A stretch of DNA of 24,000 bases from Acidianus sp. HS-5 (GTDB taxonomy: Archaea > Thermoproteota > Thermoprotei_A > Sulfolobales > Sulfolobaceae). The position numbers and the translations under genes are program-made. The notes below the pieces were generated by a model, which did not search any database, had not been told where the DNA came from, and was given only the letters and a program-made list of their open reading frames with translations. Location of the stretch: positions 181,132 through 205,131 of the forward strand of contig NZ_AP025245.1 in NCBI RefSeq assembly GCF_021655615.1. The letters run 5' to 3'. How positions within the stretch are numbered: position 1 is the first letter of the stretch; the number at the start of each line of letters is the position of its first letter. Shown one piece after another: positions 2,004 to 13,001 of this stretch.

Positions 2004-3437
2004 TTATTGTAAATTACTGAGAGATGATGGCGAAACATTCGGTAAACCTTTGAATACGCTATTAAATAATCCGCTTGTCATTAAGTATGAGAAGTGAAAT
2101 GCTATAACAGTTATTATCATTAGTATTCCTATAAAATACATTCCGGAATATATACTTTTACCGTAGGCTATAGCTATAGCTATACCGTTAGCGAATGATA
2201 TGACTATCAATATTATTAGAATAAGCAGAGAAATCAGTGAAATGTTTACTTTCCCAAGAGTAAATATATTGCTAATTACATCAACGCTAAATATTCTTTC
2301 AAATATCCCTAAGAGAGAGATTAAAGTGCCTCCAATAGCGGAACTAGAGGCTTGTAATGCATAAACCGAGGCTTCAAATGCCCTTCCGTTTTGCTCTCTT
2401 TTTGCTCTTATGTTAAGTAAAGAGGTTCCAACTCTTGCTAGTACGTCTCCTATATGTTTGATATCTCCTCCATATTCTATAGTGCTAGACAAGACCCTAT
2501 TCATCATTAGGATTAATACACTACCGCTCTCTTCGCCCATTAATTCGAATATTATGGATTTCTTTATTCCGAACTCTATTCTGTTATATGCAGACATTAC
2601 CAGTGGTCTCATCTTTCCAATATCTCCTCTTAATATACTTGTGAAAGCCTCCTTCAAGTTATTTACTATAGAGTATGTTCTAGAAAAATATGTTACGAAC
2701 GTTACATAATGCCTTTCTAATATGTCCAGTTTTCTCTCTTTAGATCTGAAATATATTCCTAAAATTAAAAACGTCAAGCCTAATATTAGTATTGAAATGA
2801 AATTATGTATTAAAATTATAAAAATTAATACGGCATTGATGATAACTAATGTTAAGTATTGCTCCTTTCTCCTATAAATTACATATGTTTCTGGTCTATA
2901 CGATATATATATAATTAGAGTCATCAATAGTATTACCATTACTAAAGAGATTGATAATAATTCTAAACTGTTTGTTCCCATGTTAAATAAGATTGATACT
3001 AAGGTAAGGTTAACCATTAGGAAGATTAGTGAACTACTTAAAGTTCCATAAATGGAAAGGAAATTAGCCATGGAGTCTATCTTCCTCATCATATTTGCTT
3101 CATATTCTGAGATAGCCATATTTATTTCTCTATCGAGATATGTCTCCATGTCATCGCCGTGAGATAGTGCTTGCGAAAATCTAATTAGAAAATCTCTTAA
3201 AGGCAATATTTTTTCCTTAGACGCAAGTATATTTATTGCTGTAGAAAATTTATATTTAAATCCATTTATAAGTGTATCCAATTTTCTAAATATCGAAGAA
3301 TATTCCTTAAGATAATCTAAGCTGGCCACTAAAGAAACTATTACTCCGGGAGGTAAATCTGCACTGAATAGCGCCAGAATATAAGATAACAAAAATATGA
3401 ATTTTGATTCCATTTCATCCTTAGATCTCAATTTCAT
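2004..3437 (-). CDS. arlJ: archaellum platform membrane protein ArlJ (FlaJ)
   Basis: 477 aa with many hydrophobic segments and cytoplasmic loops. It is the last gene of the cluster and overlaps the arlI stop by 17 nt. Size and position match FlaJ/ArlJ (PilC/TadC-like). An alternative ATG lies at 3413. Confidence 0.9.
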
Positions 3438-4953
3438 TCACCACTTCTTCCAATCCTGATTGTCTAACCTTCAAAATCCAACGCCATACATCAAAATAAT
3501 TAAAAATTTTCTTATTAACTAAATGTTCAATAAATTTAGCTCTAAGATTTAATTCATCGTATAACGTATTCATATTCTTCCTATCTATTCCTCTCCTTAT
3601 GGCTATTTTATTCTCTATAAGGTACGAAGCTCCTTTGCCTGCAAAAATTATCTTGTCATACACCGGATCGTAAGTAAACGAAGGAACGTAAATAACGTCA
3701 TTTGTAACGGGATCGATATCAATTATTTCATCAACCTCAATTACTCTTCTGATTAAATTCCCCTTCTTATCATAGAGTGCACTTTGAAATAGAGCAATGT
3801 TAAGATTATTTATATAAGATTTAGGAACTTCTATAGGATACCCGCTAAGTCTCTGAACCAATGTCCTAATGTTTGCAGAATGGAATGTTGCCATTACAGA
3901 GTGACCAGTCTGCATTGCTTGAAAAGCTACATTTCCTTCTCTATCTCTTATTTCTCCTACTAATATGTAGTTCGGCCTTTGCCTTAATGCAGCCTTAAGC
4001 AGATCAAATAGTTTTATTTCACCTTCTCCTCCAGTCTCTCTAGTTACTTCTGCTATCCAATTCTGATGAGGGACTGTCAATTCTGGCGTATCTTCGATTG
4101 TGACTATCTTCAAATTTGGAGGAATGAATGTAGCTATTGCATTAAGCGTTGTAGTTTTACCAGATGCAGTCTCTCCGCAAATAAAGACGTTCATTCCTTC
4201 ATCCAACATCATCCATAAATATGCTGCTAACAAAGAATTCATTGTGCCGAATGTAACTAATTGTGTAATACTTATAGGGACCTTTGTGAACTTTCTTACT
4301 GTCATATTTGAACCTCTTCTGCTGACATCTACGCCGTATACGAAGTTTACTCTAGAGCCGTCTGGAAGTGAAGCATCAATGATTGGTCTATTATGAGATA
4401 CGGGTCTCATGGTTTTTTCGCTTAAAGTTACTATAAAATCGTCAAGCTCTTGTTCATTAGAGATTTTAATTGATGTTATCATTGGACCAAAAATCTTATG
4501 TACTATGTATACGTTTCCTATGCCAGGTAAGCTTATGTCCTCTATATAAGGATCTCTTATTAAAGGTTCTATGGGGCCTGAATATAGTTTATCTCTAATA
4601 AAATGATAAATAATATAATCTCTAGTTCCCTTTATTTTAATCTTGTTAAGTATCTCTCTCATTTTCTTTTCCTTTTCTTCTATTGGGACGGGAACTTTTT
4701 CCTTATATTTTAGAGCCTTAGCGAATTCCATTTCTAAACGCTCTAGGATTTTCTGATCTGGCCTTGGAGGCTCTATAACTATATACTGATAATATCCGTC
4801 CTCAGATCTTTTACTTAGTCCATGAATATATATTAAATCTGATACTTTATAGATAATATTAAATACTTTAGAACCTTTATATTGTGTAGGATCACTTACT
4901 ATCTGCGGTTTTTCCTCAAGTTTGCTTATATACTCCTCAAGGAAATCCTCCAT
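3421..4953 (-). CDS. arlI: archaellum motor/assembly ATPase ArlI (FlaI), type II/IV secretion ATPase family
   Basis: 510 aa. Walker A is [10 protein letters not shown], an acidic Walker B-like box is [10 protein letters not shown], and the conserved block [15 protein letters not shown] is present. Position is between arlH and arlJ. Confidence 0.95.
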
Positions 4954-4955
4954 TT

Positions 4956-5636
4956 TTAAGCCCTCGAAAGACTGAGTGGAACAACTTTGATACCTAGCGT
5001 AGGATCTACGTTAAACGATATGCTATCTGCTCCTATAATTCCTTCACTTATCTTTACTTTTTCAAGAACCTTTACTCTAGTATTACCTATAGTTGCAGCA
5101 CTTAGCTTAAAGTAAACGTCTACTTCACTCTTTATTCTAGTCTGTAATTCCTCTGGGAAATTAGGATGGATAGTTATTATTATTGATTTTCCTTCAGTAA
5201 CGTAAACTCTTAATCCTCTAAAGAATTCCATCAGATCTTCTTCTGATGAGAATGTAGAAATAACAGTAAGACTATCTATTACAACAAAATCTTTAACTTT
5301 CCCAATAAAGTCATGAATTAGGTATAAAAGCTTTTTTGCAATTGTTAAGTTCCAGCTAAATCTAGGGGTATTAACTGGTGCTACTCCCAACTGTCCTTTT
5401 AAAAAGAAGGGTATTAAGTCTACCTTAATTTCGCTCATCTTCTTTAGGTACCCGTATGTCGATTGTTCAGTAGTTATAATGTAACCTTTCATTTTCGAAA
5501 TTAAGAGACCGTAAGCTATTTGCGCAGATATTACGCTCTTTCCAGTACCATGATCACCTTCTATCAGTATTAATGAAGGAAAAGGAATACCTCCAAGCCT
5601 TCTATCGAGTTCTTCGTTCCCAGTATTAACTATCAC
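4956..5636 (-). CDS. arlH: archaellum RecA/KaiC-like ATP-binding protein ArlH (FlaH)
   Basis: 226 aa. Walker A is GDHGTGKS within a RecA/KaiC-like N-terminus ([25 protein letters not shown]). It ends 2 nt upstream of arlI. Confidence 0.9.
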
Positions 5637-5645
5637 TTTTATCCC

Positions 5646-6131
5646 CTATAATATTCCTCTCCATACCGCTACAGTTCCATAATTAGTTGAAATTATAATA
5701 ACTGCATTAGTATCAGCATAAGGCGGATAAGGTAAAACTACAGTAAACTTTACAACGGAATCTGGATTTAAGATTCCTGAAGATGTCCACTGATATGTAG
5801 TTGGAGTTCTGGAATAATTGTATGAGGAAATTGTTAATTCTTCGCTTTCACTAACGTTAGCATAGTACTTTACTATTACTGCAAAGTGACAAAAACTCCA
5901 CAAAGTAACCGAACCATTATTAGCTACGTTTATGTAAATATCGTTACTATCGGCGGTTACAGAAAGTATTGTTATTCTAGAGCTTAATTGGCCTAAGTTA
6001 GTACTCTGTTTTAAATTTTCTGCATTATATATCAGATTAGCAGAAAATCCTAAGTTAATTAAAATTACTGCTATTAATGTTATTGCAATAACCGAAATCA
6101 ATGAAAATGCCATAATAGTTGAAAGCCCCAT
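5646..6131 (-). CDS. arlF: archaellum stator-associated protein ArlF (FlaF)
   Basis: 161 aa. N-terminal TM helix MGLSTIMAFSLISVIAITLIAVIL is followed by a beta-rich soluble domain. Gene order is arlG-arlF-arlH. It overlaps arlG by 1 nt. Confidence 0.8.
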   Translation of the reverse strand: MGLSTIMAFSLISVIAITLIAVILINLGFSANLIYNAENLKQSTNLGQLSSRITILSVTADSNDIYINVANNGSVTLWSFCHFAVIVKYYANVSESEELTISSYNYSRTPTTYQWTSSGILNPDSVVKFTVVLPYPPYADTNAVIIISTNYGTVAVWRGIL

Positions 6132-6586
6132 TACATCACCTCAAAGACGTAAGTTGTCTCATAACTATTAGGTGCAACAAACATTATTTCATAATATTGA
6201 TTCTGTTGTAACGTGCAGGATAGAGTAATAGTAACTTGTACGGTACTTCCAGGGTAAAGTACCATAGCTGAAGTACTCCAACCGGGAACCGAATTATAGC
6301 CTATCTGTTGTAGCTCGTAAACTTTACCGAAATACACTGTGGAAGATTTTATATAAATTGGAGTCTGGCCCACGTTCTGTATATAAAATACAACAGTATC
6401 CGACGATGTATTGGTAGCGTATACTATGGTAAGAGAAGTAGTGAGCTTCTGAGCCATGTTAACCGAAGCAGAATCAAATCCAGTACTAACGAAAGTTACG
6501 GCATAAAATATTGCACCTGCGAGAATTCCGGCAAGTATAATACTTGCTATTATCAAAATCGATTCACTGATTACTTCTCCCGCCAT
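6131..6586 (-). CDS. arlG: archaellum protein ArlG (FlaG)
   Basis: 151 aa. The N-terminus MAGEVISESILIIASIILAGILAGAIF is archaellin-like, followed by a beta-rich domain. It overlaps arlX by 23 nt. Confidence 0.8.
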   Translation of the reverse strand: MAGEVISESILIIASIILAGILAGAIFYAVTFVSTGFDSASVNMAQKLTTSLTIVYATNTSSDTVVFYIQNVGQTPIYIKSSTVYFGKVYELQQIGYNSVPGWSTSAMVLYPGSTVQVTITLSCTLQQNQYYEIMFVAPNSYETTYVFEVM

Positions 6587-7286
6587 TCAGATCACCCAGA
6601 ATTAAGGAAATGTATTTTACAACATCATTATCAACTGTATTGCTAACTTTGGCTATATCATAAGCAACTAATGCTAAATCTGAAGCGGAAATTTTAGCTC
6701 TATTTTTAGCCAAAATTTCCTCAATTTTTTCTATAGTCTCAACATCTTTTGACGAAAGAAGGTCAAGCCTAAATAACGATATTATTTTTTCCTTATCATA
6801 ATCCATCATAAACAAAAGAACTGATAACTGGATTATTTTCTTCAAATCGATATTATTAGGTAGGCTTTCGCCTATTACTGAACTCGTATTACTATTATTA
6901 TCTTCTTTTCTGATTACGCTCTCTATGTTAAAAGGAGACTCCTCATCACTTTTACTGGCCTTTATAGCCAAAGCTAATTCCTCTAAATTTTTACCTAAGC
7001 CTTGTATACTTTCTTTTATTTCATTATTGCTATCACTAATGACCTTGGATAGATCGTTCTGCATCTTATCTATTCTACCGGTTATTTTACTTATGTCTAC
7101 AGTTACGTTCTGTACAGCTTGTTGAGGAACTTGTTGTGGTTGGGGAATAGTTTGTTGAGTTTTAGGTTTGTTAAATTTGAACATGTAAAGGAACAACATA
7201 ACGAAAAACACCGCCAGAGGTAAACTTACCAATAATAATAAATTAAATATAGGATTTGAGGTAAAATTCAAAAACATTTTCATCAC
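6564..7286 (-). CDS. arlX: archaellum ring protein ArlX (FlaX), Sulfolobales-specific
   Basis: 240 aa. It has an N-terminal TM helix, a Q/P-rich linker (QTIPQPQQVPQQAVQ) and a long charged, coiled-coil-like region. Position is between arlB and arlG. The track start at 7286 is GTG; ATGs lie at 7283 and 7277. GGTGA at 7287..7283 with a 5-nt spacer favours 7277. Confidence 0.8.
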   Translation of the reverse strand: MMKMFLNFTSNPIFNLLLLVSLPLAVFFVMLFLYMFKFNKPKTQQTIPQPQQVPQQAVQNVTVDISKITGRIDKMQNDLSKVISDSNNEIKESIQGLGKNLEELALAIKASKSDEESPFNIESVIRKEDNNSNTSSVIGESLPNNIDLKKIIQLSVLLFMMDYDKEKIISLFRLDLLSSKDVETIEKIEEILAKNRAKISASDLALVAYDIAKVSNTVDNDVVKYISLILGDLNGGRSNQ

Positions 7287-7315
7287 CTAAAACAAAAATA
7301 ATAAAAAAATTACCT
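7287..7315 (-). terminator. T-rich tract in the arlB-arlX intergenic spacer (candidate partial terminator)
   Basis: The coding strand reads GGTAATTTTTTTATTATTTTTGTTTTAGGTGA directly after the arlB stop. Archaeal termination uses oligo-T runs. Confidence 0.4.
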
Positions 7316-8134
7316 TTACCCTATTACGCTAACGTTTGCTTCTGGTTGATACACGTATTGGCATAGTGTTAATGGAGCACCTATGTTAGGTATTACTTGT
7401 ATTGTAATTGTCTGATATTGGAATACTGGAGTTGATTGAGGGAATAGTATTATAACACCTACCGTAGAACCAGCAGGCGCTACATCGCTACCTACTAGAG
7501 GATCTCCTGCAACTGGGAACGTTATTGCTACAGGTTTACTTGACTTTACATATGCATAGTATTGAGTACCGGAGTAATTGAAAGTGAAATACTGCCCATT
7601 AGTTGGTTTAGTAGTTTCTATACATATATATTTACATCCAGTATTATAATGTAGAGCTAATAATGCTGCATAAGGACTAGAATAATAGTAATATGTTTGA
7701 GATCCTGCTTTTTGACTACATAAATATAAGTGGTCGCTTGTACAATTAAGTAATGTATATGCATATATGTTAGAACATGAAATTCCGCTTGCAGATGCTA
7801 GGAATGATATTGAAGTAGTAGCAGGCGATAAATACACGCTAGATACACCGGCGCTAGGTGATACTGTGAAATATATCCAATAACTAACACTGTCTTTAGG
7901 AAAGTTAGTTGCATATAATATGGAGCTACTTAATTGCAGCGCCGTAGAAGCTGTTTCATCACCCTTATTTATAGTAGTCTTTGCTTTCTGTGTTACGAAT
8001 AGTCCCATGTTTATTGCTACAAACGCCAGTACTGATGCAGTTATTATGAATGCTATTAATATTATTGCAGTATCCAGTCCTGCTAGACCTTTTCTCTTTA
8101 CTAATTTATTATATCTACGTATTATGTTTTTCAT
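7316..8134 (-). CDS. arlB: archaellin ArlB (FlaB)
   Basis: 272 aa. It has a class III signal peptide and the conserved archaellin N-terminus MKNIIRRYNKLVKRKG/LAGLDTAIILIAFIITASVLAFVAINMGLFVTQKA. The C-terminus reads PEANVSVIG. It is the first gene of the cluster. Confidence 0.95.
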   Translation of the reverse strand: MKNIIRRYNKLVKRKGLAGLDTAIILIAFIITASVLAFVAINMGLFVTQKAKTTINKGDETASTALQLSSSILYATNFPKDSVSYWIYFTVSPSAGVSSVYLSPATTSISFLASASGISCSNIYAYTLLNCTSDHLYLCSQKAGSQTYYYYSSPYAALLALHYNTGCKYICIETTKPTNGQYFTFNYSGTQYYAYVKSSKPVAITFPVAGDPLVGSDVAPAGSTVGVIILFPQSTPVFQYQTITIQVIPNIGAPLTLCQYVYQPEANVSVIG

Positions 8135-8150: not shown

Positions 8151-8213
8151 AAGAAAGAGAGAAGTTACATTTTTTAAATATACTGTTTAGTTTCGATTAT
8201 CAGTCTCTTTCTT
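8151..8213. repeat. perfect 10-bp inverted repeat bracketing the arlB core promoter
   Basis: aagaaagaga at 8151-8160 is the exact reverse complement of tctctttctt at 8204-8213, with a 43-bp spacer that contains the TATA box. Confidence 0.7.
8171..8205 (-). promoter_or_regulatory. arlB promoter module: GACTGATAATCGAAACTAAACAGTATATTTAAAAA (read on the minus strand)
   Basis: TATA element TATTTAAAAA (8180..8171) ends 36 nt before the arlB ATG. That leaves a UTR of about 15 nt containing GTGAG. The upstream half, GACT-N4-ATCGAAA, is shared with two other promoters in the window. Confidence 0.6.
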
Positions 8214-8282
8214 ATATTTTTAAGTATTTTTATCTGATATTATATATTTATTGAGCAGAAATTTGCGTGATATCTTTTAGTA

Positions 8283-8317
8283 GACTTACAGTCGAAATTA
8301 AACGGATTATTTAAAAA
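8283..8317 (+). promoter_or_regulatory. promoter module of the divergent operon: GACTTACAGTCGAAATTAAACGGATTATTTAAAAA
   Basis: TATA element TATTTAAAAA (8308-8317) is centred about 26 nt upstream of the ATG at 8339, a leaderless geometry. By my count 28 of 35 positions are identical to the arlB module. Confidence 0.6.
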
Positions 8318-8338
8318 CATTAGCGTAGATGTGAACTT

Positions 8339-8785
8339 ATGTATTTCCTTGGATATGAAATTATTCAATATAATCATACTGCTCTTTACGTATTCTATAT
8401 ATTTACAAATACTAGTATATTTCATGTGATATGGATTAATCCTAATACACATACAATAGTTAATTGTACAGCTTATGTTTCATTATCAGTATTATTTTCA
8501 TATCCTAGAGGAAATTATACTAATTACTCATGTAATGGAATAAATGTATATGCTCTTAAAAACGGAGATCTGATAATAAGCATGAATGGTGTTATTCTGG
8601 AAAGGATGTGCAAAAATGAGATAATAAAATTGAAATACGCTAATTATCCTGGAATAGCTAGTGAAAATTTGCCTAATTTGTCCAAGTTGGCCGGCTATGA
8701 GAACATTTTTTGTATTAGCGCTTACCTTGCGGTGGGGATAATTCTGAGTCTAGTATTTTTCATTATACTGAGGCGATTTCTATGA
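8339..8785 (+). CDS. small membrane-anchored protein (paralog A), function unknown
   Basis: 148 aa. It has a C-terminal TM helix plus a basic tail (IFCISAYLAVGIILSLVFFIILRRFL), several N-x-S/T sequons and 4 Cys. A leaderless-type TATA lies at -26. Its stop overlaps the next start (ATGATGA). Confidence 0.6.
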   Translation: MYFLGYEIIQYNHTALYVFYIFTNTSIFHVIWINPNTHTIVNCTAYVSLSVLFSYPRGNYTNYSCNGINVYALKNGDLIISMNGVILERMCKNEIIKLKYANYPGIASENLPNLSKLAGYENIFCISAYLAVGIILSLVFFIILRRFL

Positions 8786-10227
8786 TGAGAATCAATAACT
8801 ATAGCTGGGTTTCCATATATTTCTCAAGCTTGGCTCTGATAGCCACTTTCGGAGTCAATTTTACATTAGGAAGAATAACTTATACCGGGTATTTCATTAA
8901 TTGTAATTTAGCTAGAATGTTTCTAGTATTTTCCGCAATATTTATGGCTCTAAATTACGGATATTACCTATTTTTAATTCCAATATCTCTTTTATCTTAC
9001 GTTATTCCTCCAGAATTCATAAGTCCTTTGATTTTTCTAATCTCTCTTACAACGCTAAAGAACGCTAGAGGATTAAAAACTATTTTCCTAATAGCCGATT
9101 CTTTAGGGATAACTTATCTTATATTTTATATTTTCCATATTTATGTAAATTACTTGGTATTACCTCTAATATTAATTCAAGACGGCTTTACACCAATTAT
9201 AATTCCGTTAATGTTCTTAGGTATAATATATGGTCTTGGAAGAAAGATAAAATATGATGCGTTAAGAATTCCGTGGTATTTTCCTTTTATTATAGTTTTA
9301 CTTATAGTAATGTTACCACTTACTCCGTTAAACATATTCCATTATCCGGAAACTGTTGACTGGAGGTTTTATTATCAATGGCTAATCAAACCTGAATTAG
9401 GATGGTTCTTTTACTCAAGGCCTTTATATCTTTCTTTATTATTTGCTCTATCCAAACTTGTTAATGCGCTCACGTTATCTCAACTGGAAATGATTCCATT
9501 ATCGATATTATACCTATTTTCAGCATATAATCTAGGAAATTCTTTACAAAAAGGTTTGGGTCCGTTATCCGCACTGATGGCAGCAGTATCCCCTTCATTG
9601 CTCACATTCTTATACTCCGGTTTGGACTCTAATTTATTTTCAATATCACTATTCTTTTTAAGTTTGAGTTATTTGATTAACGGTAAATTAAAGACTTCAA
9701 TAGCTTTATCTTATGTGGCTCTCTTATCTCATGTTTATGCGTGGGCGCAGTTAGAGGGCGGAGTAATACTTTACATAATTGCAGAACGTGTAATATTTCA
9801 CGACGTTAAAAAGACCTATCTGGATTATGTTAAATATACATCTCCAATGTTTGTAATAGGAATAGCTCTAATATTAACTGGAATTTTACCAGTACCATTT
9901 GGTGATTCTTTTAATAACATTTATTCTCAGTTATCAATATTAAGCTGGGGTACTGCTAACGCCTTCCTTTATTATGCTATATCAATTTATGGTCTAGATG
10001 GAACGCATAAGCTAATTTACAGTTTATACGTAACGTCTATACTTGCAATAATTCCGTTATCAGTAGTCCAAAATTTAATAATTGATATCCCGTTTTTCAT
10101 ACCTGCAGCTATAGGTATTTCTAAATTGAAAAATGTTGGAAGGTCTATACTCCTATTTTTTATCATATGGGGATTGTATATGAGTTTGAACAGTTTTCCA
10201 TATATTTACAAGGGTGTTAGCATATGA
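8782..10227 (+). CDS. polytopic integral membrane protein, function unknown
   Basis: 481 aa, hydrophobic over almost the whole length with at least 10 candidate TM segments. It shares ATGA start/stop overlaps with both neighbours. I recognise no catalytic motif. Confidence 0.75.
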   Translation: MMRINNYSWVSIYFSSLALIATFGVNFTLGRITYTGYFINCNLARMFLVFSAIFMALNYGYYLFLIPISLLSYVIPPEFISPLIFLISLTTLKNARGLKTIFLIADSLGITYLIFYIFHIYVNYLVLPLILIQDGFTPIIIPLMFLGIIYGLGRKIKYDALRIPWYFPFIIVLLIVMLPLTPLNIFHYPETVDWRFYYQWLIKPELGWFFYSRPLYLSLLFALSKLVNALTLSQLEMIPLSILYLFSAYNLGNSLQKGLGPLSALMAAVSPSLLTFLYSGLDSNLFSISLFFLSLSYLINGKLKTSIALSYVALLSHVYAWAQLEGGVILYIIAERVIFHDVKKTYLDYVKYTSPMFVIGIALILTGILPVPFGDSFNNIYSQLSILSWGTANAFLYYAISIYGLDGTHKLIYSLYVTSILAIIPLSVVQNLIIDIPFFIPAAIGISKLKNVGRSILLFFIIWGLYMSLNSFPYIYKGVSI

Positions 10228-10784
10228 GGATATTAATAACCGGATTAAAAGGAGGAAGTGGGAAATCGACAATAGCTTACAGTATAATTAAGGACTTCCT
10301 CAAATCTGGGATAGTCCTTGATTTAGATTATACTTTAACGTTGACTAAACTATTGAAGGATGAAAATTTCAAGATACTCTCTATAGGAAATAGTAAAATC
10401 GATAAGAAATACTTTGAGTTTATTTATACTAAATCACTAAGAAATGAGGATAATGTGATAATAGACTCCTCAAATCCTTTCAACGAGATTATTCCATTAG
10501 AAAATAAAGTATATAGTGAGAATAAAAGAGAGTCAATAACTTATGCTCTGTTTGTTACTCCTCCCCTCTTCATGGAGAAAACCTTAGACCTGGCAAAGAC
10601 TTATGATAGGTTTATAACATCTTTATCGCCAACCGAATTAAGAAAAATACTTGTAATAAATTTTGTTAAAGATAACGAAGATATTTCAATAAACGAAATA
10701 AATTATGTGAAAATACCCTTTTTGAGACATTATATGTATAAATATTATATACCTTTAGGTGATCTAAAATGGTTGAATCCATAA
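10224..10784 (+). CDS. short ParA/MinD-family (SIMIBI) P-loop ATPase
   Basis: 186 aa. It has the deviant Walker A MRILITGLKGGSGKST with the signature Lys. It also has VLDLD (Walker A-prime/switch-like) and NVIIDSS (Walker B-like hydrophobic-Asp). Confidence 0.7.
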   Translation: MRILITGLKGGSGKSTIAYSIIKDFLKSGIVLDLDYTLTLTKLLKDENFKILSIGNSKIDKKYFEFIYTKSLRNEDNVIIDSSNPFNEIIPLENKVYSENKRESITYALFVTPPLFMEKTLDLAKTYDRFITSLSPTELRKILVINFVKDNEDISINEINYVKIPFLRHYMYKYYIPLGDLKWLNP

Positions 10785-10969
10785 GAAAAATAAATGATCT
10801 GGAATATGAAATAGATTTCAACAATAGCGTAGTAGTAACTATGAAGATAGAGGAAGAATTTCTTGAGGAAATAGATAAGGCTACGACAGTTCTTGGGTTT
10901 AAGAACAGAAGCGATCTGATAAGAGATGCACTAAAAGAATACTTAAAAAGCCTTAACACAGAATCTTAA
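10769..10969 (+). CDS. ribbon-helix-helix (CopG/Arc/MetJ-type) DNA-binding protein
   Basis: 66 aa. A tail of about 20 aa is followed by VVVTMKIEEEFLEEIDKATTVLGFKNRSDLIRDALKEYL, which fits a beta strand, helix 1, turn and helix 2. The start overlaps the ATPase gene by 16 nt. Confidence 0.7.
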   Translation: MVESIRKINDLEYEIDFNNSVVVTMKIEEEFLEEIDKATTVLGFKNRSDLIRDALKEYLKSLNTES

Positions 10970-11324: not shown

Positions 11325-11462
11325 TATTTTCCCCTCATAACTTATATTTATATTTTGATATAATGAATACCCTTAACAAGTAGTTATTTTGTATAAAATA
11401 AAATTATAATCTTACATAAACAGCATAAGGATGATTTTAGCATTGTTTAAAAACCAATATTA

Positions 11463-11470
11463 TTTTTATA
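11463..11470 (+). promoter_or_regulatory. candidate TATA box of the arnR-like gene
   Basis: tttttata is centred about 29 nt upstream of the ATG at 11496, consistent with a leaderless transcript. Confidence 0.4.
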
Positions 11471-11495
11471 CCCGAAAAAGTATAATGTTTTTTAG

Positions 11496-12296
11496 ATGTC
11501 GCTTGTAAATTTCATTAATACACTTAAGGAACTAGACGAAAGTATAGATTTCGCAAAAGGAGTTTATCAATGGAAGATAGTGTTAATACTTTTCATAAAA
11601 GGACCTATGAGTACTTCAGAAATAGCAAAAGAAATTGGAGTTAACAAGAAAAGCGTTATAGATTCAATACGAAAGTTAATAGACAAAGGATTGGTCGAAA
11701 GAGTAAAATATGATATTTATACCTTGTCAGAAAACGGTAAAAAATTAATGGAAAAACTTAGCGGGATTTCAACGCAACAGTTGCAAGTAATCGATTTAGA
11801 TCCTACTGAAGATATATTGAATAATGTAACTCATTACTATTACTTTGTTGAAATAGTAAAGGCATCCACTTTAAATAATTATAAGGTTCCTATCAATTCA
11901 TTGTGTAGAGAATTGGGAGTATCTAAGAGGACATTAATAAATTACCTTGATATATTTTCTACAAAATATAAATATTTCAAGAAAATAACTAAAAAAGGAT
12001 TATTTAGAAATAAAGTAGAATATATGCTCACAGATGAGGGTAAAAAGATTGCATATAAGATTCCTGGAACGTATAAACTGAGACGTAATACATTCTTAAA
12101 GATACTAACCAAGGTTACGCTAAGTAATTCCTTAGAATATTCGATATTTAAGATTCTTGTTTCATTTTCAATTACAGCTCCATTAATATTTATGTTATCA
12201 AAATATCCTGAAGATAAAATAGTTGCGGCAATATGGTTATATTTTCTTGTATTCTTCGGTGTCTCAAGTGTTTTGGCTTATCTATTATCTAAGTGA
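11496..12296 (+). CDS. arnR: membrane-anchored HTH one-component regulator, ArnR-like (archaellum regulatory network activator)
   Basis: 266 aa. The first winged-helix region is MSTSEIAKEIGVNKKSVIDSIRKLIDKGLVERV. A second HTH-like region is INSLCRELGVSKRTLINYLD. There are two C-terminal TM helices (ILVSFSITAPLIFML and IVAAIWLYFLVFFGVSSVLAYLL). This architecture and the location next to the arl operon match ArnR of Sulfolobus acidocaldarius. Confidence 0.65.
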   Translation: MSLVNFINTLKELDESIDFAKGVYQWKIVLILFIKGPMSTSEIAKEIGVNKKSVIDSIRKLIDKGLVERVKYDIYTLSENGKKLMEKLSGISTQQLQVIDLDPTEDILNNVTHYYYFVEIVKASTLNNYKVPINSLCRELGVSKRTLINYLDIFSTKYKYFKKITKKGLFRNKVEYMLTDEGKKIAYKIPGTYKLRRNTFLKILTKVTLSNSLEYSIFKILVSFSITAPLIFMLSKYPEDKIVAAIWLYFLVFFGVSSVLAYLLSK

Positions 12297-12329
12297 CTAC
12301 AAGTCGAAAGTGAAACTCAGATTTAAAAA
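12295..12329 (+). promoter_or_regulatory. third copy of the promoter module: GACTACAAGTCGAAAGTGAAACTCAGATTTAAAAA
   Basis: It has the same GACT-N4-GTCGAAA-N11-ATTTAAAAA spacing as 8283-8317. The TATA centre is about 27 nt upstream of the ATG at 12352. The module begins at the arnR-like stop codon (12294-12296). Confidence 0.55.
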
Positions 12330-12351
12330 GAAGGCTTTAGAAGATGGCAAT

Positions 12352-12843
12352 ATGGATCTGGTAAATCAAACGTTATTTTACACTGTAATGCAAGGTCATA
12401 CCTTGCTCTATTTCCTTCTAATTAAAATAGTAAGTGTTCAAGGAAACAGTGTTTTAGTTAATATCACAAATATTGATACTAATGGTGTTGTATTAAATTA
12501 CACTGCAGCAATGCCCTTGTTTCAAATAATTTGTAATAATTCTAGCGGAAGGCCGATAATGTTTGATGGAGTTAATGCAGAAGCCGTATGTCATAACGAA
12601 ATGAGAATAATTGTTGATACTTATAATCATTTGGTACTATCTTACGTAGAAAATGAAGAGAACTTTACATTAAACGGCAGTACAATACCAATAGCTCCAG
12701 GAAAGATATTGCACATTAACTTACCTTTTTCAAAAAATCATAGTATTATCACTACTTATGAGTATCAAGCTTTAGCCTTGAGTACGGTACTTGTATTCTC
12801 ATTCTATGTAATGTTAAATAGGGTGGAAAAACGAGAAACCTAG
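12352..12843 (+). CDS. small membrane-anchored protein (paralog B of 8339-8785), function unknown
   Basis: The track ORF starts at a TTG (12223) inside the arnR-like gene. The first ATG is 12352, with a TATA at -27, giving 163 aa. It has a C-terminal TM helix plus a charged tail and several sequons. Collinear matches to paralog A are HTxLY, CN and (N/D)GVxxExxCxNE. Confidence 0.55.
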   Translation: MDLVNQTLFYTVMQGHTLLYFLLIKIVSVQGNSVLVNITNIDTNGVVLNYTAAMPLFQIICNNSSGRPIMFDGVNAEAVCHNEMRIIVDTYNHLVLSYVENEENFTLNGSTIPIAPGKILHINLPFSKNHSIITTYEYQALALSTVLVFSFYVMLNRVEKRET

Positions 12844-12857
12844 GAAAGGCAATAATA

Positions 12858-13001
12858 TTGACAGCGATTGTATTGTTGATACTTGCCGGAGTCTTTTACA
12901 ATAACGAAAGACTTTCCACGACATTAGGAGATTTTGCATATTATGAATTAATATTGGGAATAATTATAATATTAATAAGTGAAAAACTAGGCAAGAACTA
13001 G
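12858..13001 (+). CDS. possible tiny two-TM protein (TTG start)
   Basis: An open frame after 12843 reads LTAIVLLILAGVFYNNERLSTTLGDFAYYELILGIIIILISEKLGKN. There is no ATG start and no homology is recognised. Confidence 0.2.
   Translation: MTAIVLLILAGVFYNNERLSTTLGDFAYYELILGIIIILISEKLGKN

Follow-up and report, generated by a model that had tools for sequence, protein, structure and literature searches.

The archaellum genes of Acidianus sp. HS-5 lie in a stretch of 24 kb (contig NZ_AP025245.1, positions 181,132 to 205,131) that was analysed at its full length and is called the window here. The arlJ-to-arlB cluster occupies the reverse strand; divergent from it runs an operon headed by a small gene, here named small1, beyond which lie a gene for an ArnR-like regulator, a second small gene (small2) and a micro-open reading frame (micro-ORF), all on the forward strand (Table 1). 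Our subject is the promoter module at 12293-12329, which spans the junction between the arnR-like gene and small2 and has two further copies in the arlB/small1 intergenic region. Its upstream half, once extended by 2 nt, reads (T/G)(A/T/C)GAC-N5-GTCGA and is, judged by its letters, a form of the already published ArnR box, whilst its downstream half is an ordinary archaeal TATA box.

Results

Searched for on both strands as GACT-N4-GTCGAAA-N11-ATTTAAAAA with up to 3 mismatches, the module was matched at only three places in the window, namely 12295-12329(+), 8283-8317(+) and, with 1 mismatch, 8171-8205(-), and in none of 100 dinucleotide-preserving shuffles (chance expectation 0). This architecture had been pointed out in a sequence-only reading, whose letters at 12295-12329 are exactly those of the window, and whose spacings between the end of the TATA box and the ATG (22 nt, 12330-12351, and 21 nt, 8318-8338) are as it claimed; its count of only three copies in 24 kb holds both in the pattern search and with a position weight matrix (PWM) trained on other genera only. 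The description as a promoter module stands too, with a refinement of its extent: the true start lies 2 nt earlier, at 12293, and overlaps the stop codon of the arnR-like gene (TGA, 12294-12296), which falls inside the left half of the box. That reading did not recognise the upstream half as the published ArnR box (PMC6396743), so that the module is no new kind of element. Between arlB and small1 the two boxes lie at a distance of 88 bp and belong to promoters that point in opposite directions; at the 12293-12329 module, 13 nt separate the end of the box from the TATA box. A scan of the window at Rfam gathering thresholds found no families.

The ArnR box was defined in the flaB (arlB) promoter of Sulfolobus acidocaldarius as a 15-bp inverted repeat with the consensus TCGAC-N5-GTCGA (PMC6396743), where two tandem boxes at -84 to -43 are required for ArnR/ArnR1-dependent activation and binding (PMC6396743, PMC4307647, PMC10117864), and where reporter assays linked the boxes to ArnR/ArnR1-dependent activation (PMC6396743, PMC4307647). 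Against this consensus, both mismatches of the 12293-12307 box fall in its left half, and the 8281-8295 box has one mismatch. The 41-nt S. acidocaldarius probe pflaB41, ACGTCGATCAGCAGTCGAAAAATTGTGATTTTTGGTCGAAG (PMC6396743 supplement), carries in both of its boxes the GTCGAA(A/G) right end of the window copies, and these score 13.3 and 12.3 bits with the PWM of this analysis. The likeness to the flaB promoter thus extends from the 15-bp inverted repeat and its GTCGAA(A/G) flank to the place just 5' of the B recognition element (BRE) and TATA box, to the archaellum locus itself and to the adjacent arnR gene. The pair in S. acidocaldarius is reportedly box-1 plus box-2 for ArnR in Lassak et al. 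2013 and Bischof et al. 2019 (PMC6396743). Counted from a start at the ATG, the 12293 box lies at about -59 to -45, within the published range of -43 to -84 and just 5' of BRE/TATA. The window differs from S. acidocaldarius in having one box per promoter and not a tandem pair (no second match lay within 130 nt upstream), in its degenerate left half-sites (GTGAC, TAGAC, GAGAC), and in that its boxes also precede genes other than arlB, one of them overlapping the regulator's own stop codon.

For comparison across loci we drew on Metallosphaera (L001, L002, L005, L011, L012, L015, L016), Sulfolobus sp. A20 (L008-L010), Saccharolobus solfataricus (L017), Sulfurisphaera tokodaii (L018), close relatives of the window (L004, L006, L080) and intermediate metagenome contigs (L007, L013, L014). 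A 19-bp PWM, comprising the box and its AAnT flank, was run over 218 kb made up of the window and 16 related loci. It returned 37 matches of at least 16 bits, all of which precede arlB, small1, small2 or the ParA-like gene following arnR, and all of which sit at a fixed short distance (~13-15 nt) 5' of a TATA-like A/T-rich element; every other position scored 14.5 bits or less. When a non-circular PWM was rebuilt from the other genera and the two experimental S. acidocaldarius boxes only, the three modules were again the top sites of the window, at 19.9 bits (8281-8295), 19.3 bits (12293-12307) and 14.3 bits, followed by a site of 10.4 bits, and shuffles of the window gave a mean of 0.24 matches of at least 14 bits (maximum 2). 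Over ~260 kb of DNA from related Sulfolobaceae, no box was seen elsewhere than before arlB, the small1 operon, small2 or, in Metallosphaera, the ParA-like gene after arnR. Upstream of arnR itself the box was missing from each of 12 loci, where no site reached 6 bits; this agrees with the report that ArnR does not regulate its own gene in S. acidocaldarius (PMC10117864). An alignment of arnR upstream regions (window 11325-11495 and 11 related loci) contained no motif conserved across lineages.

A metagenome scan with the pattern GAC-N4-AGTCGAAA-N12-15-TTTAAAA matched at least 120 stretches; among the matches listed, 117 were chance matches from unrelated environments, and only L080, L037 and L042 were archaellum loci. 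On one metagenome contig of 22 % GC, unrelated to Sulfolobaceae (L033, 9804-11364), three spaced copies of TCGAC-N5-GTCGAAAC can be read on both strands; this is a repeated palindromic element matching the box by chance, found only via the pattern scan.

The distances from box to gene fall into two classes. Before arlB, where a box is always present, the box starts 71-75 nt and the TATA box 43-47 nt ahead of the ATG, and the leader contains an AGTGAG-type Shine-Dalgarno motif. Those small1, small2 and ParA-like genes that have their own box lack a Shine-Dalgarno motif, and their box starts 58-59 nt before the ATG (55 and 60 nt at two divergent Metallosphaera small2 genes), with the 5' end of the TATA box 29-31 nt before it where a simple TATA pattern matched, which was so for 15 of 17 such promoters, the unmatched ones being the two divergent Metallosphaera small2 genes. 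For small2 of the window the values are 59 and 31 nt, and before the two small genes of the window the TATA box begins 30-31 nt ahead of the ATG. The offset from box to TATA is fixed at 13-15 nt across the other loci, around a spacer of variable sequence. Leaderless archaeal promoters have BRE/TATA ~26 nt 5' of a start site that coincides with the start codon. The small1/small2/ParA-like promoters have the geometry known from leaderless transcripts of the Sulfolobales, which in the window predicts a small2 transcription start at or next to 12352. When 8 small2 upstream regions were aligned, no non-coding columns were invariant except G.C in the left half, TCGAAA.T and the TATA core; the ATG was invariant as well, and these columns hold even where small2 is divergent from arnR and not downstream of it. 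The right half and its AAA flank are far better conserved than the left half in the 218-kb comparison.

Small2 is linked to arnR in all sampled lineages, by three wirings: coupled in an operon, behind its own ArnR box, or divergent. The window lineage, L007 and L013/L014 have the box on the arnR stop codon or right behind it, ahead of small2. In Metallosphaera it is a ParA-like gene that comes after the box at this stop codon, and small2 is found divergent upstream of arnR, where it keeps its own box (20.8 bits in L005/L001, 11.7 bits in L011/L012). Sa. solfataricus, Sf. tokodaii and strain A20 have a single box, TCGACTAC(A/C)(G/A)GTCGA, a perfect palindrome in the first two, in a 120-bp arlB/small1 intergenic region with a TATA box on both sides, which looks like one shared box of a bidirectional promoter. 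Their genes and their box are the same as in the window, and the TATA boxes adjoin the box, but one palindrome serves both directions and small2 has no separate promoter; in the window lineage and in Metallosphaera, by contrast, each transcription unit has an oriented box of its own.

The gene upstream of the module, which the sequence-only reading had called arnR-like, lies 3.4 kb from arlB in the neighbourhood of the arl operon and encodes a winged helix-turn-helix (wHTH) domain followed by two C-terminal transmembrane (TM) segments. Its product matches NCBIfam NF041016 end to end (residues 6-266 on model positions 5-269 of 269, E 5.4e-73, 245.7 bits, below the curated cutoff) and has 40-43 % identity with proteins that carry the name ArnR in Sa. 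islandicus and S. tengchongensis, in keeping with an ArnR-like gene. Scanning a genome collection with the ArnR profile gave 3 loci, S. acidocaldarius not among them, and a protein search with the profile likewise came back without S. acidocaldarius.

All small2 homologues begin M-D-L-(V/I)-N-Q at the 12352 ATG, and the family has four conserved N-x-S/T sequons. An exhaustive profile search found 7 clusters among 1.84 billion representatives, the named members being Sulfolobaceae; one of the 7, a 1346-aa match, was rejected as a low-complexity repeat protein. The AlphaFold2 model, built on a 7-sequence alignment, reached a predicted local distance difference test (pLDDT) score of 51.8, too low for a fold search, and a profile search of the PDB with the family returned nothing at E up to 1. 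Neither small1 nor small2 has a significant match in Pfam or NCBIfam, a below-cutoff Pfam match on the small1 TM segment aside. The resemblance of 12352-12843 to 8339-8785, noted earlier, is real as that of distant paralogues, although it is visible only between profiles and not to BLASTP (E 0.064, not significant): hhalign between alignments of 8 small1 and 11 small2 sequences gave a probability of 97.3 % and E 2.7e-11 over 144 of ~160 columns, at ~19 % identity, and both families have an LNYT..P.F stretch and a C-terminal hydrophobic anchor or TM segment. By these alignments, small1 and small2 are true but ancient paralogues, whose split predates the divergence of the sampled genera.

The micro-ORF behind small2 is probably the second gene of the small2 unit; it is conserved in all lineages, with homologous ORFs of 55-85 aa after small2 in L013, L008, L017, L018, L005 and L011. 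Its conserved N-terminal residues LGKAII (12831-12857, in a different frame from small2) lie 5' of the only canonical start, TTG 12858, and the start would therefore be shortened or non-canonical in the window lineage. Between flaB and arnR of S. acidocaldarius lies Saci_1179, a conserved small membrane protein gene whose deletion had no effect on archaella regulation (PMC4307647) and which belongs to the starvation-induced ArnRAB iModulon, Saci_1172-1179 (PMC8578740); it is a possible counterpart of small1 or small2.

Table 1. Genes and promoter elements of the window, with the shared box of three other lineages
Feature	Coordinates	Strand	Description
arlJ, arlI, arlH, arlF, arlG, arlX, arlB	2004-8134	-	Pfam Arch_flagellin, ArlX, KaiC-like ATPase, T2SSE, T2SSF
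arlB	8134-7316	-	Pfam PF01917; leader ~15 nt with AGTGAG Shine-Dalgarno-like motif
Module, copy one	8171-8207	-	Box GAGACTGATAATCGA at 8207-8193 (GAGAC-TGATA-ATCGA), TATA 8179-8171; precedes arlB
Module, copy two	8281-8317	+	Box TAGACTTACAGTCGA at 8281-8295 (TAGAC-TTACA-GTCGA), TATA 8309-8317; precedes small1 operon
small1	8339-8785	+	148 aa; first gene of the operon divergent from arlB
Membrane protein gene	8782-10227	+	481 aa, polytopic; small1 operon
ParA/MinD-like gene	10224-10784	+	186 aa; small1 operon
Ribbon-helix-helix (RHH) gene	10769-10969	+	66 aa; small1 operon
arnR-like gene	11496-12296	+	266 aa; N-terminal wHTH (Pfam HTH families, residues 25-91); TM 216-234 and 242-260
ArnR-box-like 15-bp inverted repeat	12293-12307	+	GTGACTACAAGTCGA (GTGAC-TACAA-GTCGA); 2 mismatches to TCGAC-N5-GTCGA; 19.3 bits
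Flank and spacer	12308-12320	+	Conserved AA flank, variable spacer; predicted BRE directly 5' of TATA; archaeal promoter architecture
TATA box	12321-12329	+	ATTTAAAAA; conserved T-T-A columns; 5' end 31 nt before ATG
small2	12352-12843	+	163 aa; predicted beta-rich, C-terminal TM segment
micro-ORF	12858-13001	+	47 aa from TTG start; hydrophobic segments; conserved behind small2
Shared palindrome, L017	5696-5710		Between arlB and small1 TATA boxes
Shared palindrome, L018	~7615-7629		Between arlB and small1 TATA boxes
Shared palindrome, L008 (A20)	~7468-7482		Between arlB and small1 TATA boxes; one degenerate half

The gene order of the small1 operon is kept in L004, L006, L080, L011 and L015. 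Its 481-aa membrane protein, for which neither Pfam nor NCBIfam gave a significant match, is encoded by the second gene of the box-controlled operon in every sampled genus. The ParA-like gene of the window is overlapped by the 66-aa RHH gene, a pairing that resembles type Ib partition cassettes. Genes for ParA/MinD-like (CbiA) ATPases pile up near arnR/arl loci more generally (window 10224-10969; L005 371-7551; L011 1341-8290; L015 1149-6403; L017 13551-19036), and Metallosphaera-type loci have 4-5 of them in ~8 kb, one directly behind the ArnR-box promoter at the arnR stop codon. The public gene call for arlB at L015 (8618-9520) begins at 8618, upstream of the ArnR box that belongs to this gene (8628), and probably extends too far in the 5' direction.

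Discussion

The sequence architecture observed here, its statistical specificity, its fixed geometry, its conservation across genera and the protein homologies lead us to favour, at a probability of roughly 0.7, the reading that 12293-12329 is a functional, activator-dependent ArnR-box promoter of small2. A single ArnR box (right half GTCGA with its AAA flank) at about -59 to -45 would be followed by a BRE/TATA core, with the 5' end of the TATA box near -31, and transcription would begin at the ATG at 12352 or no more than 1-2 nt from it, yielding a leaderless mRNA of small2 and the micro-ORF. The membrane-anchored wHTH ArnR-like protein would bind the box in dimeric or oligomeric form and help to recruit the TATA-binding protein (TBP) and transcription factor B (TFB), and would act likewise at the arlB copy and at the copy of the divergent small1 operon. 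Production and activation of ArnR, which in S. acidocaldarius occur on starvation, would then turn on small2 along with the gene of the archaellum filament; starvation induction, like ArnR binding, activation and the start site, is something we infer from the sequences. In favour of it speaks that Saci_1179, next to flaB and arnR in S. acidocaldarius, is a member of the starvation-induced ArnRAB iModulon (PMC8578740). Because arnR itself is without a box, control would run one way only, in a cascade from arnR to targets nearby.

Several points weigh against this reading. In vitro, binding of ArnR to the flaB promoter of S. acidocaldarius needed both boxes (PMC6396743), whereas the window promoters are single-box, with no conserved second box ~21 bp upstream, and the left half-site at 12293 is weak (GTGAC versus TCGAC). 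The proximal box end would lie near -45 in both the window and S. acidocaldarius provided that the published probe is written in flaB sense, an orientation on which the comparison of positions depends. The ArnR-like protein, at 245.7 bits, stays below the NF041016 curated cutoff of 400. In L008, L017 and L018, just 1-14 nt separate arnR from small2, which is preceded by a GGTGA Shine-Dalgarno motif and has no box; a promoter of its own is thus not essential for small2, and a separate one would be specific to certain lineages. Finally, read-through from arnR probably contributes as well, since no obvious T-rich terminator lies between the two genes.

Could the module be a functional promoter whose box is read by a different regulator, such as another wHTH protein or an Lrs14-type factor of the archaellum network, with the adjacency of arnR a matter of synteny only? 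We regard this as unlikely, if the strongest of the alternatives. The affinity of ArnR for the S. acidocaldarius promoter is weak, with a dissociation constant of 3-5 uM, and ArnR also bound promoters without inverted repeats (PMC6396743); AbfR1, too, binds the arlB promoter (PMC10117864), and a right half with AAA flank so much more conserved than the left is unusual for a symmetric dimer site. Against this stand the S. acidocaldarius reporter assays, which tie the boxes to ArnR/ArnR1-dependent activation (PMC6396743, PMC4307647), and the fact that no box was found farther than a few kb from an arnR gene, with one lying on the arnR stop codon itself.

Less probable still is that small2 is expressed through arnR read-through alone, the box and TATA at 12293-12329 being either non-functional or involved in processing of the arnR 3' end. 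The gap between the genes is just 55 nt and contains no obvious T-tract terminator, and the boxless, GGTGA-preceded small2 of L008, L017 and L018 suggests co-transcription as an ancestral or alternative solution. The window, however, has no GGTGA-like Shine-Dalgarno motif ahead of the small2 ATG, and its box-TATA-ATG geometry (59 nt versus 58-59 nt) matches that of purely intergenic promoters. Box and TATA are, moreover, the sole conserved non-coding columns, and in Metallosphaera the same position drives a different gene, whilst small2, located elsewhere, retains its own box. Transcription by read-through only, which had been raised as a challenge to the module, therefore does not fit the window lineage, but it is the apparent mode of small2 in Saccharolobus, Sulfurisphaera and A20.

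The sequence-only reading had offered two sources for the likeness of the promoters, a joint duplication of promoter and gene or control by the same regulator, and it is the second that gains support. The module also precedes the non-homologous arlB and the Metallosphaera ParA-like gene, and it is kept before small2 even where small2 sits elsewhere. The small1/small2 duplication is so old that the likeness of their promoters must have been kept by selection, which supports co-regulation. That the likeness is instead a passive remnant of a segmental duplication, or a generic strong-promoter context with no shared regulation, is very improbable: the downstream genes are indeed paralogues and the TATA part ATTTAAAAA is generic in AT-rich Sulfolobaceae, but at ~19 % identity and with a split older than the sampled genera unselected DNA would have drifted apart, and the box also stands before non-homologous genes and was seen at no other promoter in ~260 kb.

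If small2 is controlled by ArnR, it is worth considering, as a tentative and on balance doubtful analogy, whether small2 and the micro-ORF might be a ToxS/TcpH-like extracytoplasmic partner of ArnR. Small2 being itself under ArnR control would then close a feedback loop on ArnR signalling, and ArnR may rule a clustered local regulon (arlB, the operon of small1, the membrane protein and ParA/RHH, and small2) of the kind expected for a membrane-tethered regulator. The idea rests on the constant proximity of small2 to arnR and on the predicted features of an exported, N-glycosylated and membrane-anchored protein, and was motivated by a survey of transmembrane regulators in which ArnR is listed without a known partner and ToxS/TcpH-like genes often flank such regulators (PMC10269533). 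With ToxR/ToxS, TcpP/TcpH and CadC, ArnR would share the plan of a membrane-anchored one-component regulator with detected targets beside its own gene, adjoined by a gene for a small single-pass membrane protein; it differs in its unrelated DNA-binding family and in that the TM segments of ArnR, and the anchor of small2, are C-terminal. Deletion of Saci_1179, a possible counterpart of small2, did not deregulate archaella (PMC4307647).

To conclude, the module is a new instance of a known cis-element, which extends the predicted ArnR regulon and shows promoter rewiring between genera, and reveals no new mechanism. It bears on questions of crenarchaeal motility such as the signal that ArnR senses and the full set of genes that it controls. 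Whilst published work takes arlB as the box-containing target, the comparative evidence predicts that in several genera 2-3 more transcription units near the archaellum operon are under an ArnR box, these units encoding Sulfolobaceae-specific paralogous small membrane proteins, the 481-aa membrane protein and ParA/MinD-like ATPases. The three wirings that join small2 to arnR make these genes candidates for missing archaellum accessory or ArnR-signalling components.

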